A stretch of 64,000 nucleotides of DNA, taken from IMG/VR virus record IMGVR_UViG_3300045988_072096; one strand, 5' to 3'. Position numbers and translations under genes: made by a program. Of the stretch, positions 3,001-51,500 are shown in pieces. Position 1 is the stretch's first letter. Every line of letters begins with the position of its first letter. Under the pieces are notes generated by a model. That model worked only from the letters and a program-made list of their open reading frames with translations, ran no database searches and was not told the origin of the DNA. Source of the DNA: a virus.

Positions 3001-5132
3001 ATAGTCGATTTGGTATTATAATCATAATATCCATTTGCATCATCTAGATATTCAAAGAATTGAACTAATAGCGAATCCTTCCCGTCTGCTGTCTTCCATG
3101 TGCCGTCTGACTATCTATGTAATCCAAATGCTGCTGCTAATCGTAACTATGTAGATTGCATTATTTTGCTTTGTTGCTATTCTACAAATTTATATCTAGC
3201 GTCTTCTACAGCCTACATAATGTCCGTATTTGGATCTTTTTCCAATCTTTCTTTTACAGCTTCTACTACAAAATCATCTTCTGTTTGAGATAGTTTTGTT
3301 AAGATAGTTTCTGTTTCAGAGTCCTATTGAGATTCAGACTCAGTAGATTCAGAGTCAAGTAATTCGTCTACATTTATGGAATCATCCGCATACTTTGATA
3401 CAGCCTGTTTTGCAATTTCCTATGATTGATCGAATGTATATCCATTATTATCCAAAATCTATAATACAACGCCTTCAATCTAAGATTGTGAGTTTTTATG
3501 AATAGAGTTGTCGATAATAGATACAACATTTTCTAAAGCGTTATTAAATTTATTTTCATCATACGCAGGAATATATTTAAGTAATTCCCTAAAGTTTGGA
3601 TTTGATACAAATTCTGCAATGAACTCGTGTTCGTTTTTAAGTCCATATACGTCGAGCATTGAAAAATATCTTGATTTATTAGCATTGTCGTATGCATTTA
3701 GGTAATCTACATATCCTCTAAGTACTGCTTTTATTTTAGGGTGCTCGTCTATATATCTACTAGTAACATAATGTACCGCTTCGTGTATTATAATATTACT
3801 TATGTGCGTATAACTACGAACGTTATTATTTAACGATATGACTTGCCCGTCTTCATCGTAGGAACAAACGCCACCGATAGATTCGTATTGTTCATTGAAT
3901 TTAAAAAAATAAACTTTACCGTTTGTATATCGTTTCAACGTACTAAGCAAACTACCAATATAAGTTTTTTGTTTGCCTTCCGGAGTAAAATTATAAATAA
4001 TATTTACCAGATTGGATAGCGAATTTTCTTTTTTCAATAATCCTCTAACGAAGTCAATATTATATTTATCTTCAAATATAGCAGAGTCTCTTGCGTTTTC
4101 ATATATAGCACGAGAGTTCTTAGCTAAAGAATTATCGTATATAGAAGCATATTTAACAAACTAGTTATATAATTTGTTTTTTATCTTATCTGAAACATTT
4201 GGTTTAATATCTACTATCTACTTAATTCTTTGCAATTTGTTATATTTTTGCTACAAAGCCATTTTATGTAAATTATGGCCTTCTATGAATATCTGTATCG
4301 CAGTATAAGCTTTGCCTTTTTGAGTCATTAATTGATGTTTATAATGTCCAAAATACTTATTAAGCTGTGCTTCAGTTATACCTGCTTTAAACAAATTTGG
4401 AAAGAATTGTCGTATTCTCTATTGTGTTATTATATCATAATCAGATATATCAGTAGTGTGTTTTCTTAAGAACGATAGCATGTTTTGGACATACCATTCT
4501 CCATAAACAGACGAATTGTCAAGCTATTTTTTATACTCAGATATTTTTTCCTAAAGTACTGGTTGTAAATTTTGACATATATAGTCTATTCTATTGTACA
4601 CATCGTCTAATGATACGTCACCTTCTTGTACACCATCTAATTCATCTCTTGTAAATAAACCTACTCCAAGTAAATCTCTTACGTAGTCATTGTATCTTAC
4701 TAAAAAATTACGATAATTGTCTACATCTTGCAGTTTTCTTAGTTTACCTTTTGTTATTCTAAGTTTACTAACAAAATTAACGTAATAATCCAATAAATCT
4801 TCTGGTATATGTTTTTCTATCATTCCAGAAAGTGGTTCCCTATTCTCATCTTGGAATACTGTATCCATATTAAACCAGTCACCAAATTTACTAAGGAACT
4901 ATTTTGTGAACACTTTAGCTTTTGAAGCAATTGCTCCAGCTATCATTCCACCATGTATTTTAAGTAGGTCTTGAAATAGTATAGAAGGCTCCCCATTGGG
5001 AGCCATGTCTATACTGTTTCCATTATTTTTAGACCATATATCGTAGGCACCTACTTCTCCTACAACGTCTTTAATCTAATTAAATTTCTCAGCAACTTGT
5101 GGTCTACTGAGTATTGGACACATTATTGCCAT
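1..5132 (-). CDS. Very large virion-associated protein, 3' end cut by the window edge (at least ~1,710 codons). It has two zincin-type HExxH motifs and requires TAG read-through.
   Basis: The seven listed minus ORFs 192..401, 774..1103, 1401..2408, 2598..2792, 2796..3002, 3480..4037 and 4551..4868 all share one frame (end coordinate = 2 mod 3). I walked every gap in that frame and found only plus-strand 'cta' (TAG), with no TAA or TGA. The ATG at 5132 lies 5 nt after the TAA of the upstream giant ORF. HEMAH is encoded at about 2928-2945 and HEAVH at 3771-3785. Confidence 0.7.
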
Positions 5133-8100: not shown

Positions 8101-11100
8101 CATCGTTATCAAACACATCGTTGTATTTTGACTTAAACGCCTATTGTTCAACATAACTCTTACCTTGTTTTTTTGTATCAATTTTACAAGCATTAACTAA
8201 ATCAGAAAGTTTTTGTCCATATTTAGACATTTCCTAGTTTATATATGCCACGTACAATTGTACTTGTTTTGGTGATAAATCTATTGTTGTATCTACAAGT
8301 TGGCCATCATCGTTCTATACTTTAACATTAATTCTATATCTAGAAATCTTGTCTTCAAGATTATCAAACGACAATTCTTTATTTATATTATGTAAGACGT
8401 CCTTATTATTAAATATATCTTCAAGTATGCATCCAGATTTTGTTATAATCTCTCCATTATCTTGGATATATTCAAACTCGTTGCTATATGAACCATCGTC
8501 ATTTATTCCAAATAATGCTTTTGCAAATGATGCTATTGATTCCTCTACGTCAGTATTATTATTTCCAATATCTTGTAATGTCTTCTTTATATTTTTAAGA
8601 TTTCCTGTATTTGCGGCATCTTTAAAGTTATCGAGTATATAGTTAGTAACTGCAAATCTTTGTCTAGCAGCTTTGGATATAGTAATATCCTCCATATAAT
8701 TTCCACCTGCCGTTTCGTATACAGAAGCAAGCTCTTTCATAATAGGCTGCGATAAGAACATAAATGTACGCTCTCCCATACCTGTTCTAACTAATAAGTT
8801 AGTTGTATTATACGTAAACGTATTGATGTTTAATCGCTATATATACGGATCTTTGGCTACGTCCACATGAGCATTAATTAATCCTGATAGCCAAGATAAT
8901 TTTAAATTACCCTATTTATCTTTAAGACTGCTTAAATCAAGACATCCTAATTCTCTAAGAAGAGGACAATGGTCTGAGTCAAATTTAACACCATATAGCT
9001 GAGTTAAAATTTGACTATTGTTATTTAACGCAAACGGACCAATTCCGAATTTACCAACCACAAAGGATCCTCTAGTTCGTACCTAAAATGCAATATTACC
9101 AAACTTATATGCATATTCTTCTTGAGCCTATTTGTTTGTTTCAATTTTAGCCAATACGTTCTTGACAAGATTTGTATCTGAATCGATAGAGCGTAAACTG
9201 ATACCTGCACTTGCGCCATTTACAATTCCATTCTTTCCGAGATCTTTTCCATGATCTTTTAATATTGTAAGATAATAATTAAGAAGATTATTTCTAGATT
9301 TATCTTCAGAATCTTTCTTAAAATCAGTCGATACTTTGTCTATGGTAATCTTCTTTCCATTAGATTCTACCTCAATCTTATATGACCTATAACTTAATCT
9401 TGACAAATACAGTTTATCGATGTCGAAGTCAGAACCCGTAACCATTGTGAACTCTTTAGGAAGTACTATTGTATCTCTAACTACTGGCAAAACATCAACG
9501 AATCTTAATGCATGAATTGAAGATTGAGCCTGTGTAGGAATACGTGAAGCTATAGTGTTAGCTTTAGCATCTTTTCCTATAATCTTATTCTTTATAAGCC
9601 ACTTTCTACTTGCCTCAAAATCGTTTTTAAGACCTTCTGGTATTATATCCATAAAGAAATCTATAGATATAACAGCGTCCATACTTCCTTCCTCATTGAC
9701 AAGCTTAAGTTCGTTTCCATCATTAATTGTAGGAGAAAGTTGGTCGTCACCTAATATAGTCGGTTTACCTTCCATACTCCAGACAGATCTTTGATAAAAA
9801 GCATTTCCTTTTACATTAATGTCTACTATCTTTTTGTTTAGCTTTGCTACAAGTATACTCTGTATCCAATCGATAGAGGACATTGCTTCAAGATTAACTT
9901 TAAAATGTTTCTTTCCATCATTATCGACCTCTACTTGAATGCCATCAATCAAATTTTCATCAGCATCACGTGATTCTAATTCTTCTTCTAGGAATCTACT
10001 AAACTTTTCGATGTCTAATTCTCCAGAATCGTCAAACATCTCACGCTCGAGTTCTTCCATTCCGTACGTAGACAAATTATTGATCTCACGCATTATTTCT
10101 CGCAATAAATCTCTACCACGTAAAGTCTTTCCATCTGGAGTAGTATACTCTTTATTTTGTATAAGACTAGTAAGCGCAACTTTCGTCATCTGTGTACCCA
10201 TTTGAGCAAATTGCTTTTCATGAGGATCTGTATTCAACTGTTTACGTATGAATTTATATTCTTGATCATATGTATCAAACTAGAATGCTTCAAATGCCTC
10301 CTTGTCGTTAAGTAGTTTCTCTGTCAATTCTGCAGGAGATTGAGAACCTATCTTAACGGCACTATGCATCATTAGCATATCTATGTGTTGAGATTCCATT
10401 TTACTAAGTATTTGTTGAGTATATCCGGTGGCCATTTGCTTGAATAGTGGGAATAATGCAAACTTATTATAGTACTGTATTTTTATATCTCCTACAGGTC
10501 TATATCCATATGCACTGTATTTTTGTGCACCAAGCATTGCTTCGTATATAACTTTAAATGCCTACTTATTACTAAGAATATTGCTTTTTCGCTTACCCTC
10601 TAGATATTCAAAGGCCTCTCTTACAGGTTGTGTATACTTTCCAAGTTGACGTAATAAGTTTTTAGCCATTTTTGGTGTTATAAATGCAGCACCGTCTGCC
10701 ACATTTATCTAAGCTCTGCCTTTTTTATCAAGTCCAAATGAAGATGCTTCGTCTTCACCACGCTTTTTTGCTACATTAAATAAAGTAATCTAACCAGCAG
10801 ACTCAAAATCATTCTTGATTTCATCAAGAGACATCTCATTTACACCATTTTTTCCATATATCCTATCTGCAAGTTTGTCTAATTCATCTTGATCAACTAT
10901 ATCCTTAGACTTATATTCATAATAAATTTGACGTATTTCTGCATCTTGGAACAAAGAATTAAGCATATCCAATTGGTTAGATACAACCATTTGATCTTCT
11001 ACTTCTGCGCATTTATATTTGCTACGTATTCCAACCATATATGGCCTATTTCTTTCTCCAGTAGAGCCAAGACCACCAAGACGCTTAGTTTGATCGCTAT

Positions 11101-40531: not shown

Positions 40532-42043
40532 TTAAGCGCCAACTGTAGTCATGCCATTATTAATGTGCTCAGCATCATCTGCATCACAGTACATAATACC
40601 GCAAGACAGCGGATTACGGAGCATAATACCTTCCTCGCCGAGGAAGTGTACCTGATAACCATCACGGCTGTTAGAACGTACAGTATTGATGTTATTAGCG
40701 TATCCAGCAGGAGTTACTGAACCGGCAGTACACCACTGAACAAATTCACGACCCTTGCGGCAAACCTTAACAATGTTAGCCTGGCCATCACGCTGGCCGA
40801 GGTCGATAAACAAGAACGTATATGACATCAACGGTTTACCTGACAGAGGATGAAGTTTACGGAACATCTCCATGTTGTCAAATAGAGCGCAACGTTTTAC
40901 AGTAAGCTCAATGCCGTTAGTCATCTTATAAGTTGTAAACTGACCACCAAGAGTAAGCTCCTGACCAGAACCGGTAATGAAGTGTGTATCAATCATCTGG
41001 AAGCTAGCTACTTTCTCTTTAAGAATACGGTCGAATTCACGGATACCCATCTCTCCTGTCAAAGCCATAAATTTACGCTCATTAGTACCAAGCAGATTAT
41101 AGCACAGATCGAAAAGGAACTCCTCGAACAACTCACATGTCAGAGTTGTATAGTAACGTACGTTAGCGGGTGAAATCTGCTCAAACAGACCTGCTGAAAT
41201 AGGTACAGGACGTCCGTTTGAACCCTTAAGGTTATATGTACCATCGGTATTGCGGTTAGACTTAGAGAACAGAAGAGCCTTCTCTTCACGTCTCTTCCAC
41301 TCGCGAAGAGCCTTCCAATACTGATAATCTGACCACAGATAAGACTTCTTACCAGTCTCAGGATCAGTCAAAGCAATAGCAAGTACTGTAGAATAAGCAT
41401 CACCGGTAATATCATAAGTAAGACGCAGAGTCATAAGATTGTTACGCATCTTAAACGGAGTCTGATAGTTGATGATATCAGCCTCATCACTGTACTCCTC
41501 ATAAGCTGAACCTACGCGATCTACCTGACGACCGGGAAGCAGATATATACCAGGAATGTAAGAGTTAGCAAAACCCTCAGCTACGTAGCACTCGTATACC
41601 CAAGCGTTACCGTCCTGATAAGGCATACCCTTTACGCGTACCTGGAAGTTGATGTCGTCAAACGCAAGGATTGTACCGGGGCCGTACCATTTCTCTTCGA
41701 GAGCAATATAGATAGGAGTACCATTAAGACCAGCTGCGGTATTTTCATTTACATCTACACCGTCACACTTAGCCCACATAATATTAACTGCGTGGTCACC
41801 ATCAATCATCACAGACCACTCATACTCACGATTATCAATAATCATAGTCTTGCCGAGACCACCGGTAATCATGTCAATGGCAGTAGATACGCCATCATCC
41901 TTTGTACCAAATACAAGCGAAAGCAGACCTGAAACCTGATGAGGATTTGTCAGCAAAGCGTTAGAAATCATATTCTCGTCTACCAGATCAGAAAAACGCT
42001 TACCGCGATAGAGCTGGAGACCATTAAGCAAATTGTTATTCAT
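40532..42043 (-). CDS. Major capsid protein (HK97-fold, crAss-like), 503 aa, TAG-free
   Basis: This is an intact 503-aa ORF ending in TAA. The call rests on its position (scaffold upstream, GC hairpin downstream), its size, and its higher GC content and TAG-free codon usage, which are typical of the most highly expressed gene. Confidence 0.75.
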   Translation of the reverse strand: MNNNLLNGLQLYRGKRFSDLVDENMISNALLTNPHQVSGLLSLVFGTKDDGVSTAIDMITGGLGKTMIIDNREYEWSVMIDGDHAVNIMWAKCDGVDVNENTAAGLNGTPIYIALEEKWYGPGTILAFDDINFQVRVKGMPYQDGNAWVYECYVAEGFANSYIPGIYLLPGRQVDRVGSAYEEYSDEADIINYQTPFKMRNNLMTLRLTYDITGDAYSTVLAIALTDPETGKKSYLWSDYQYWKALREWKRREEKALLFSKSNRNTDGTYNLKGSNGRPVPISAGLFEQISPANVRYYTTLTCELFEEFLFDLCYNLLGTNERKFMALTGEMGIREFDRILKEKVASFQMIDTHFITGSGQELTLGGQFTTYKMTNGIELTVKRCALFDNMEMFRKLHPLSGKPLMSYTFLFIDLGQRDGQANIVKVCRKGREFVQWCTAGSVTPAGYANNINTVRSNSRDGYQVHFLGEEGIMLRNPLSCGIMYCDADDAEHINNGMTTVGA

Positions 42044-48598: not shown

Positions 48599-51500
48599 TT
48601 AAAAACTAAATATCGGTATATCATCTTGTACGCTATTGTCCTAGAACCACTATGTTCCAAACAATGGCAATTCAAAGAGTTCAACCTATTTATTCTATTC
48701 TTGTGATTTGCTAACCTTCACCTAGTACAACTCTTCTCGATATATCATAACCATGCATAATGCTATCACACGGTCTACGTTCTTAACGCCATCATTTTCT
48801 ATAAGTTCTTCTATTAAAGGTTCGCTATATACTCTCTCTACGTTAGGATGCCCAGGTTCATATTCCTCAAGTAACCACTCTAGGATAAGTCCTTCTCCAT
48901 ATGCTCTAATCTATTTAGTCATATGACATCCTTTACGTCTTTGTACCTTACTGTCCTTAAAGACCTCAGAAATAATCTTATCGGGCTAATCTGCAAGTAA
49001 GTAATCACAGTGTTTGTTTGTGAAGTACGGGTATATACCCTTACGTTCATTCTCAAATAATAATCTAGCATTATAGAACACTAATAGTTTTCTGACGTTC
49101 TCATAATACTCTTCTGCTGTATCAGGCCTACCTGAATATTCTGCTACTATTACATCATTCCAAGCTTCGCCAGCTTTTACACGTTTGAATATGAATACAG
49201 ATCCTAATGAATTTGTAAATGAATCATCATGGTCATCAATTTGTTATCGTTAAGCTTTTTATCTTAACTTCTACATGTCCCCATGTAGTTCAGCATATAT
49301 TATCACCAAAATGGCGTCGAGCACTCGTGGGAGAATTATATTTATTCATCTCCTATGCGTTACACTGTCTTATAGCCTTTCGCAATCTATAAGATTAGCA
49401 CGGTGTTTTCTGTTCTAGACTTTCACCGTTTTTACTCGATTATACCCCGCTGATAATTAACGGGTCGCAGTTATGTGTCAAAATGTTTCTGCACATAAAT
49501 GTATGTGTACCACATTCAAAATTGTATACATAACCGCTATACAACGATGATTCTATTTTTTCTATTTTGATCAGTATTTTATTATCAACGAATTTTATTT
49601 TACTTTTAGCAATTCCAGTAGTCTTAGAAAGTTCTAATACTTTTATCTTTCTGCTCCTGTATTGCGGATTTACAGCAAGAAACAAATTATCCTATCTACA
49701 TACATTTATTCTATACGATTGTTTTGATATGCCACCAAACCTGTTTTTATTCTATTTCTGATGCAAAACGATCGAATTGCGTATCTTTAATGAAAACAAC
49801 ATATCCTGTATATCTTCCAACAATTCTAAATTAACACTTGTAAAATTGCATCTAACTTTTCCATTGTCGTAAAATACAGATCCGTCTGTATCTAAGTATC
49901 CTTGTATAAAAGCTAACTTTAGATCTTTTGGAGACTATTTAATCCATTCCGGAACTCTTTTATTATACGCATTTGTACCGAATTGTTCACATAAATAATT
50001 TGCAAGATTTTTGTATGTAAACCTACGTGTATTTTCTCTATTTTTATGTACATGCACGCATTTTCTTTTGAATAATTTGTCAATTAATTTATCATACATT
50101 TCTGCAAATTCGGTCTCGTCTTTACCTATAGATAAATATATATCGTGTGAATTTTTATTTATATTTACAAATCCGTCTCCAAGCCATAAACCTAAGAAAT
50201 AATAAAAAAGTTGTTTATGTTTGTCCCCATTTGTTTCATTATTATAATATCTGTTTGGAATTTCAAGCCAATCTGTTTCGCTCAAATCTTTAGCTTTTAC
50301 AAAACCTTTATTGTGTATCCATATAGGATGTTCACTAGTAAACGTAGTTGTTCTAAATGATCCATACGGCTTTATTTTAAATATAGGTTCGTTTTCTTTT
50401 CTATATAACTATTGATTATGTATTTCGACAAACTGATTATCTTTATTCAACAACTTATCGTCAAGAGTAACATCTTCGACATTTACCAATCCTCGCTACG
50501 TATAAACCTTTTCTCCAGGTGTCAAACATCCTCCAATATACAATCCAAATGGCGGATCTTTTATGGGATATTCCCATATAACTATAGATCCATGTGGTTT
50601 ATCTCCTTTCTTAAGCGGATATTCAGTAATATCTCCAGACTTCTTTTCTGTAGCTATTATCTAACCATTACCATCCCAATTGAGATCTACTATATGTTTC
50701 ATATTACGTAGTTTTGTATTTGTACGTATACGTGTAAGCTAATCCATCAAAAGTTTTCTTGGAAATATATTCTTACCTAACTCAAGTACAGCCTCTCTTG
50801 GTTTAATAGGACGTTCTGATATAAATCTATCTATGGACTATTGTGAAGCACCTCCGTCTTTAATCTTATTACGTTGTTCTATTAGATTCTCAATAGCTTT
50901 CTCACGAAGACTATTTCCGTCTTTATCCATATAGATATAATTTCCATCTTTGTCAAAAGATTCTAGATTACTCCATGAAGGAACAAAGAATCCACAATTA
51001 GTTTGTTCAGCATTATCATCCCATATGTTTGGAAATGCTAATACGTTATATGCTTCAGGTTTATAAAATAATTCCTTCAAACCTGTAAATGAAGCTCCCT
51101 CTGTACCACCTGTACCATAAGCTATCATTAGACCAAAAGCTACACCGTCGTCAGTTTCTACAGACGGTTGTTCTATTCGCCACGCATCTAACAAGCCGGG
51201 GAACTTACCTCCCTCCTCCCATAGTACTAATTTACCACGAGTACCACGAATACGTTCTGGATCGTTCTTAAGTGTTATTCCACTAATAGATGACATATAA
51301 CCTTGTTCAGTCTATTTACCAAATTCGTCAGTTACCTTATAACCAGCTACGCGTTCCATACGAGTAGATACAAGCCTTTGTTTAGCCCATGCTGTATTCT
51401 TGTCTATAAAGTCCATGATTTGCCAAGCTTTTGTTAGCAAACCATCTCCTATTAAGAACTTTTGTTCTGATGCTACAGCAAAGTTTTTAGATCCAGGTAT

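Follow-up and report, generated by a model that had tools for sequence, protein, structure and literature searches.

The large terminase gene terL of a crAss-like phage is interrupted within a single catalytic motif by an intein and, 10 nt further downstream, by a 223-nt insert which is very probably, on sequence grounds, a group I intron. The gene resides in a 64,000-nt stretch of viral DNA (IMG/VR record IMGVR_UViG_3300045988_072096), hereafter the window. Group I introns, including those lacking an open reading frame (ORF), are already well known in phage terminase genes, and dense introns and inteins have been published for Delta-group crAss-like phages; the terL intron is new as an unannotated member of its family, found at a new site. 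The simplest reading of the comparisons reported below is that the intron would have spread among diverged alleles of terL as a separate unit, and independently of the intein.

Organization of the interrupted terL gene

The window comes from a TAG-recoded phage, whose terL region is 94.9% identical to that of cr131_1 (NC_055902; Suoliviridae, Oafivirinae; from rhesus macaque faeces) and ~75% identical to that of cr7_1 (NC_055895). The gene occupies 51938 to 48599 of the minus strand, and includes the following segments, compared with the uninterrupted 685-aa TerL of the relative cr130_1:

50529..51938, minus strand: terL exon 1, the N-extein (ATPase domain to ...PPFGLYIGG), collinear with cr130_1 TerL residues 1-470; internal stops are all TAG
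49470..50528, minus strand: intein of 353 aa (CLTPGEKV...ILTHN), between GG and CDP of TerL, missing from cr130_1 at exactly that point
49460..49469, minus strand: exon segment of 10 nt, TGC GAC CCG T (Cys+1, Asp, Pro, base 1 of Tyr), in which CCCGU forms the 5' strand of helix P1
49237..49459, minus strand: putative ORF-less group I intron of 223 nt, UAAUUAUCAGCGGGG...AACAAAUUG, matched by the covariance model R1 (see below); its removal restores the protein, and its fold has z = -3.5
48599..49236, minus strand: terL exon 2, nuclease domain, AT GAC CAT GAT GAT ... TAA, devoid of its own start codon, collinear with cr130_1 TerL residues 474-685

The intein is in frame, starts with Cys, ends with His-Asn, is followed by a +1 Cys and contains Hint and LAGLIDADG domains (Pfam LAGLIDADG_3, 3e-16; Intein_splicing, 7e-6 and 26.4 bits, under the Pfam cutoff of 35.8 bits). 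Past the intein end (THN, at 49470) and the +1 Cys, the frame reads CDP and then LIISGV before a TAA; the nuclease part restarts at 49236 in a different frame, lacking a start codon. A preliminary description of the window, made from the letters alone, had proposed that removal of 49459..49237 repairs the gene, and this proved correct: deletion of these 223 nt yields CDP-Y-DHDD, and the spliced protein reads ...GGCDPYDHDDS.... Devoid of the intein, this protein aligns with cr130_1 TerL without gaps, the latter reading GGCDPYDHDDSFTNSLGS at the junction. Borders moved by one base in either direction replace the conserved Y with F or D, and are thus fixed by homology. Within the nuclease motif CDPYDHDD, the intron splits the codon for Tyr; the motif is contiguous, as CDPYDHD(D/E), in at least 71 intron-less alleles. 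No sense-strand ORF was found in the 223-nt insert beyond the nine read-through codons, and no endonuclease ORF.

The same insert is present in independent assemblies, namely cr131_1, cr7_1 and five IMG/VR contigs, a recurrence which rules out the assembly artefact that the preliminary description had kept as an alternative. In RefSeq, the terL coding sequences of cr131_1 and cr7_1 end at the TAA of the intron; the remainder of ~840 nt (intron plus nuclease exon) is unannotated and corresponds to 4062-4904 in cr131_1 (L001, NC_055902) and 3654-4486 in cr7_1 (L002, NC_055895).

The in-frame stops of terL and of the intein are all TAG, and the TAG positions of the window lie opposite Gln codons (CAA/CAG) in cr130_1. 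One tRNA gene of the window is relevant here:

57463..57536, minus strand: suppressor tRNA with anticodon CUA (ARAGORN), which would read the TAG codons of terL and intein

Its counterpart in cr131_1 is annotated as tRNA-Gln. Taken together, these data indicate that TAG is read as Gln in late genes, TAA and TGA remaining stops, in agreement with the TAG recoding published for Delta-group crAss-like phages (PMC7886860). The TAA within the intron is therefore a genuine stop.

Secondary structure of the intron

Helices were assigned from two alignments. The RNAalifold consensus was derived from alignment A2, made up by seven homologues, the window and its near-identical copies being left out; it contains 50 pairs, 37 of which show compensatory changes, and predicts P3, P4, P5, P6, P6a, P7.1, P8, P9 and P9.1. 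Pair counts were obtained from alignment A3, which comprises 28 matches taken from 26 sources and covers 55 pairs in 10 helices. In A3, 97% of the cells form standard pairs, compared to 29-45% when partners are slid by 1-3 columns, and 47 of the 55 pairs are altered on both sides, the P3/P7 pseudoknot included. The elements of the window intron are:

49446..49451, minus strand: internal guide sequence AGCGGG, the P1 3' strand, pairing with exon CCCGU and the first intron U; U·G wobble at the 5' splice site
49316..49439, minus strand: P3, UCGAG (49439-49435) with CUCGA (49321-49317), enclosing P4-P7.1; RNAalifold consensus and pair counts
inside 49316..49439, minus strand: P4 CGGUG/CACCG, a short P5, and P6 GCU/AGU; RNAalifold and pair counts over the 28 sequences
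inside 49316..49439, minus strand: P6a CUUAUAG/CUAUAAG, conserved loop AUUGCGAAAGG; RNAalifold and pair counts
inside 49316..49439, minus strand: P7.1 GGAGA/UCUCC, conserved loop UGAAUAAAUAUAAU; RNAalifold and pair counts
49293..49358, minus strand: P7, the pseudoknot helix, GCAUA (49358-49354) with UAUGC (49297-49293), pairing in 28 of 28 sequences
49316-49304, minus strand: P8 CGCCA/UGGUG, between the P7 strands; RNAalifold and pair counts
49237..49288, minus strand: P9 CUACAUG-GGGA-CAUGUAG; P9.1 GUUAAG/CUUAAC, conserved loop AUAAAAAG; 3' tail GAUAACAAAUUG to the terminal G

The topology is that of group I introns, P3 being wrapped around P4-P6a and around P7.1, which sits between the P7 5' and the P3 3' strands, with P8, P9 and P9.1 following. 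Several features proposed earlier are borne out. The 5' exon ends in U, within the pairing CCCGU/GCGGG; the final intron base is a G (...AACAAAUUG), and aligns with the terminal G of the homologues; the 7-bp hairpin with a GGGA cap at 49288..49271 is P9. The interval is densely structured, its fold being better than that of 200 out of 200 shuffled sequences (z = -3.5), and the candidate P3 and P7 helices are both backed by covariation across the 28 sequences.

P7 varies from GCAUA/UAUGC in the window to GCGUA/UACGC in eight other members and GACUA/UAGUC in a second intron of the window, which is detected by the Rfam group I model RF00028. The first P7 pair is G-C in all 28 sequences, its aligned counterpart in the RF00028-positive intron being the G of GACUA, and would correspond to the guanosine-binding pair. 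P1-type exon/guide hairpins ending in U·G are found elsewhere in the family (GACGGU/GCCGUC in phage SA2, AACGGU/GCCGUU in JCL1032, AAGGGU/GCCCUU in the major capsid protein (MCP) gene of cr128), and vary in sequence along with their exons. P1 covariation amounts to four clear cases; the 5' splice sites of the cr118 helicase, F1 and L019 introns could not be fixed. Compensatory changes occur even among near-identical terL copies, in P6a in L032 and in P9 in L023. The loops AUUGCGAAAGG (L6a), UGAAUAAAUAUAAU (L7.1) and AUAAAAAG (L9.1), conserved throughout the family, probably make tertiary contacts. P2 is missing in the window intron. Because of the P7.1 insertion the intron is of the phage IA type, or subgroup-IA-like; related phage introns have been classed as IA1/IA2 (PMC2504315).

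The terL intron copies are 96-99.6% identical, and their differences cluster in 9 nt of the L1 loop (49458-49451 in the window; L027, L029, L031, L032 and L033), which reads UAAUUAUCA, UAAUCAUCA, UAAAUGUCA, UAACAUAUCA or UAACACAUCA. No covariation between L1 and the 3' exon was observed among these copies.

The intron family

In blastn searches of phage genomes, the 223-nt sequence finds homologues over 75-92% of its length, which split essential genes. They reside in terL of Staphylococcus phage VB-SauS-SA2, phage vB-SscS-F1 and Lactobacillus phage JCL1032, in the helicase gene of cr118_1, in the MCP genes of cr128_1 and bajarodcaudo virus 1, in the polymerase/primase gene of Dulem virus 41, and in several more; some adjoin HNH or other endonuclease ORFs. 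Clostridioides and Bacillus phages give weaker matches, which lie within or close to unassigned genes. In family members inserted at other sites, identity to the terL copies does not exceed 75% (63-75%). In seven IMG/VR introns inserted at other sites (L020, L021, L022, L024, L025, L026 and L028), a 43-nt P7/P7.1/P3' core is identical to that of the terL intron; overall identity is 71-75%, and both P1 and guide sequences differ.

The covariance model R1, built from A2 and hence from sequences not including the window, matches the window at 49446..49236 with 201 bits (E 5e-60), over 220 of 220 model positions with one non-canonical pair. R1 also matches the RF00028-positive intron of the window at 55874..55653 (68 bits, E 3e-19), and the family is therefore tied to canonical group I introns. 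The preliminary description, which proposed a group I intron devoid of an ORF, 10 nt downstream of the intein, is thus strongly supported by family homology and by covariation over the whole core (P3-P9.1).

Some observations weigh against this assignment. RF00028 does not match the insert, either in the whole window at the gathering threshold or in 48800-49900 (~1.1 kb) at E<=10. The search suggested in the preliminary description was thus negative, and of little use as a test: at E<=1 the same model also misses three other homologues and the JCL1032 terL intron, reported as self-splicing, which makes the miss uninformative. Rfam and GISSD models under-represent phage introns according to a 2025 study (PMC11878797). 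The A3 alignment was fitted to the model structure, and pairing percentages are inflated for all helices but P7, which lies outside the model and still pairs in 28 of 28 sequences. P5 has just 2-3 bp, including a non-canonical pair in the model alignment, and P10 is a weak 3-bp UCA/UGA pairing, offset by one base.

Predicted splicing route

Borders, restored frame, family membership and covarying secondary structure are all observed features; the self-splicing chemistry is the one to be expected of a homologue of the JCL1032 terL intron. P1 would form in the pre-mRNA by pairing of the guide AGCGGG with exon CCCGU. An exogenous guanosine docked at the P7 G-C pair would attack after the wobble-paired U; the freed exon would in turn attack after the terminal G, and ...CCG U would thereby be ligated to AU GAC.... 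The predicted exon junction is TGCGACCCGT|ATGACCATGATG, the ligated exons reading AACTGCGACCCGTATGACCATGATGATTC. Translation with TAG as Gln would give a TerL precursor in which the LAGLIDADG intein is still present, 3 residues upstream of the point where the intron had been; removal of the intein by protein splicing would then complete the nuclease motif. One RNA-splicing and one protein-splicing step would accordingly both be needed for a single catalytic motif. The TAA located nine codons into the intron would halt ribosomes before they reach the ribozyme core; an early in-frame stop ahead of the core is commonly described for phage introns. A role of the intein LAGLIDADG domain as a required maturase was considered and rejected, L033 having the intron and no intein.

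Distribution of intein and intron at the terL site

Four allele states were recorded among public viral contigs, their frequencies being lower bounds: among related terL loci the best 80 of 365 were considered, all uninterrupted.

Empty: at least 71 alleles, with a contiguous CDPYDHD(D/E) motif
Intein only: 18 contigs, ...THN|CDPYDHD...
Intron only: L033, GLYIGG-CDP-intron-YDHDD
Both: six alleles (window, cr131_1, cr7_1, L027, L029 and L032)

The window and three alleles of a second lineage have exons 74-78% identical, with 51-56% identity at exon third codon positions, and introns 97-99% identical at the nucleotide level. Inteins of the window and of L027 and L029 are 64-67% identical. Taken pair by pair, window and L029 share 98.7% of the intron and 63.6% of the intein, window and L027 97.3% and 67.3%, respectively; within the second lineage, L027 and L029 are 91-94% identical in the exons, 72.7% in the intein and 97.8% in the intron. 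The nearest relatives of the window, cr130_1 and L034-L037 (82-87% nucleotide identity), are empty, and the intron is found in L027, L029 and L033, which are much more distant. In L033 the region downstream of terL where the portal gene is expected (9494-10474) shows a weak LAGLIDADG/intein-like match, 23% identical to the terL intein.

Proximity to the intron brings no increase in exon identity beyond ~10 nt upstream and 4 nt downstream. On the downstream side, synonymous differences start at +5; upstream, only the 10 nt TGCGACCCGT are common to all carriers. These 10 nt are found in seven of the seven intron-bearing alleles with readable upstream sequence, the nearest intron-less relatives having CCT or CCA. 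Of 89 intron-less alleles, 31% have GAC CCG; the nine nearest all lack it. The association of TGCGACCCGT with P1 is suggestive, and is not statistically firm as a figure drawn from carriers belonging to two deep host lineages only; CCG in the carriers is compatible with both selection for P1 and a very short conversion tract, which the data do not separate.

Origin and spread of the intron

Two readings dispense with a recent arrival of the intron. That the insert is no intron, terL being split into two proteins, translated through a bypass, decayed to a pseudogene or misassembled, hardly deserves credit. RefSeq does end the terL genes of cr131_1 and cr7_1 at the TAA of the insert, and there is no Rfam match; yet the catalytic motif is broken inside a codon, exon 2 lacks a start codon, independent assemblies of different samples contain the insert, the intron model matches with 201 bits and covariation, and a packaged phage cannot do without terminase. 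Long residence at the site with vertical descent is improbable too. Purifying selection, very strong and acting at almost all positions, would have kept the copies 97-99% identical, and many precise losses would account for the patchy distribution. Differences cluster in L1, two of the three that separate window and L029 lying within 9 nt, as expected for a neutral loop in a constrained RNA, and a few compensatory changes distinguish the copies, both in favour of this reading. Against this reading, members of the family at other sites (63-75% identity) vary freely in P5, P6a, P8, P9, P9.1 and loops, and positions of these helices are therefore not individually constrained; exon third positions approach saturation at 51-56% identity; empty alleles in the nearest relatives and carriers among distant ones would require repeated precise deletions. 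The pattern fits better with an intein that is an old and diverse resident, and an intron that would be a recent horizontal arrival in alleles with and without intein; this is again the simplest reading.

By which route the intron moved is a separate matter. In the preliminary description the intein endonuclease was suggested to mobilise the intron by co-conversion: the LAGLIDADG enzyme would cut empty terL alleles, and both elements, 10 nt apart, would spread as a unit. The short distance between the insertion sites, the apparently intact LAGLIDADG domain and the six alleles with both elements are in line with this view, and trans-mobilisation of ORF-less introns is documented in phages as collaborative homing. 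Joint movement, however, predicts equal divergence, and introns are 97-99% identical where inteins are 64-67% identical; the intron stands alone in L033 and the intein alone in 18 contigs, and flanking sequences diverge. Moreover, a resident intein disrupts the homing site, and the enzyme cannot account for arrival of the intron in alleles which already contain diverged inteins. As a general account co-conversion is thus most unlikely, although it may still occur wherever an empty allele encounters a donor that has both elements. A trans-acting endonuclease and reverse splicing are candidate routes for independent movement of the intron. No free-standing endonuclease tracking the intron was recognized among the candidates of cr131_1, the window's own genes not having been scanned systematically: neither the HNH protein gp72, encoded just after the portal gene, nor the GIY-YIG protein gp84 has a close homologue in the intron-bearing cr7_1. 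Reverse splicing needs just a target for the guide sequence, and leaves no co-conversion (PMC2504315). Synonymous sites are saturated between lineages and flanking identity extends for ~10 nt at most, a pattern which makes conceivable, if doubtful, that the intron spread by reverse splicing, or by another route guided by the ~5-nt P1 target CCCGU, rather than by endonuclease homing. That intein and intron lie so close together is most likely due to each having independently targeted one invariant stretch of the nuclease motif, because inteins and group I introns generally target the most conserved codons of a gene (PMC2814812).

Comparison with known introns

JCL1032, a phage of Lactobacillus delbrueckii (Riipinen & Alatossava 2004), is cited in PMC6669764 as the Lactobacillus phage with proven self-splicing group I introns. 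Its terL (NC_019456) is annotated as a join, and an intact TerL was reproduced by splicing after AACGGU, whose U wobbles with the guide GCCGUU, and after ...CACAAAUG. Like the window intron, the JCL1032 intron interrupts terL, is devoid of ORFs and similar in size (226 nt as reconstructed vs. 223 nt); the two share helices P1, P3-P6a, P7, P7.1, P8, P9 and P9.1, the loops AUUGCGAAAGG, UGAAUAAAUAUAAU and GAUAAAAAGC, the U·G 5' splice site and the terminal G. They differ in sequence (~63% nucleotide identity) and in location, the JCL1032 intron residing at the Walker A codons (GRKNG|KT) that belong to the ATPase domain, and not in the nuclease motif. JCL1032 is moreover a Firmicute phage using the standard code, and no intein was seen in its terL.

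The closest relatives outside the crAss terL site are the terL introns of Sextaecvirus phages of Staphylococcus/Mammaliicoccus (VB-SauS-SA2, vB-SscS-F1 and 6ec), 73-77% identical over ~92% of the length. They are likewise cores devoid of ORFs that interrupt terL, with a U·G pair at the end of P1, but are inserted in the N-terminal half of the gene, and some copies adjoin homing-endonuclease ORFs. In SA2 (L004, 1477-2635) terL remains split once the 229-nt homologous intron is removed; a further insert contains an ORF of 198 aa (1866-2462), and terL resumes at 2635.

In Delta-group crAss-like phages (Suoliviridae), TerL typically contains an intein, and core genes group I introns, as reported by Yutin et al. 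2021 (PMC7886860). The window shares with the phages of that survey the phage group, TAG recoding and the terL intein. Introns were, however, detected there through endonuclease domains, and inteins only were reported for TerL; an ORF-less terL intron is mentioned neither in PMC7886860 nor in a 2023 review. Collaborative homing of ORF-less introns is known for psbA of cyanophage S-PM2 with F-CphI, and for T4 mobE with I-TevIII (PMC3984707). In those systems, as at the terL site, an endonuclease-less intron and an endonuclease-bearing element converge on one conserved target; in contrast, the nearby endonuclease of the window is part of an intein, and intein and intron do not travel together.

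Other introns and tRNA genes

The RF00028-positive intron of the window interrupts the dUTPase gene:

~56568-55642, minus strand: second group I intron (extent approximate), between ...GVIDA and GYRGE... of the dUTPase; core at 55916..55653

RF00028 matches it at 55916..55700 with 55.4 bits, reaching threshold. Upstream of the ribozyme core the intron carries an HNH endonuclease ORF (MIIKVCKQCGKEF...HHINFNHNDNR...). R1 aligns its P3, P4, P6, P7, P8, P9 and P9.1 (68 bits), P7 being the canonical GACUA/UAGUC. It differs from the terL intron in being detected by RF00028, in the HNH ORF and in sequence (~44% identity).

In cr131_1 (L132, 27379-29758) the annotation of the major head protein is split in two around an HNH endonuclease gene, an arrangement which looks like another intron. 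R1 has no match in the corresponding region of the window (~41000-42000), and the head-protein insert, if an intron, would therefore belong to a different family.

A tRNA-like gene is located at 58168-58250 (minus strand). ARAGORN calls it an 83-nt tRNA-Ala(agc), the Rfam alignment shows 15 nt where the anticodon-loop consensus has 5, and cr131_1 has no annotation for it; it may be a tRNA with an insertion.

Significance

TerL is a standard phylogenetic marker of Crassvirales, and unrecognised introns and inteins distort both gene calls and trees. In at least two crAss-like genomes, cr131_1 and cr7_1, terL is annotated in RefSeq as truncated because the intron is invisible to Rfam and to intron searches based on protein domains. 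Model R1 would recover ORF-less phage introns which current pipelines miss in terL, MCP, helicase and primase genes. The terminase nuclease motif of these phages would need RNA splicing, TAG suppression and protein splicing. The site is a natural example of two selfish elements evolving independently at one target, and its four allele states provide a clean system in which to study the spread of an intron that lacks an endonuclease, and to learn whether selfish elements lying side by side assist one another, exclude one another or do neither. Should guidance by the P1 target hold true, the four-state terL site would be a natural system for the RNA-guided spread of group I introns in phages, and would also illustrate competition between intron and intein for one target.

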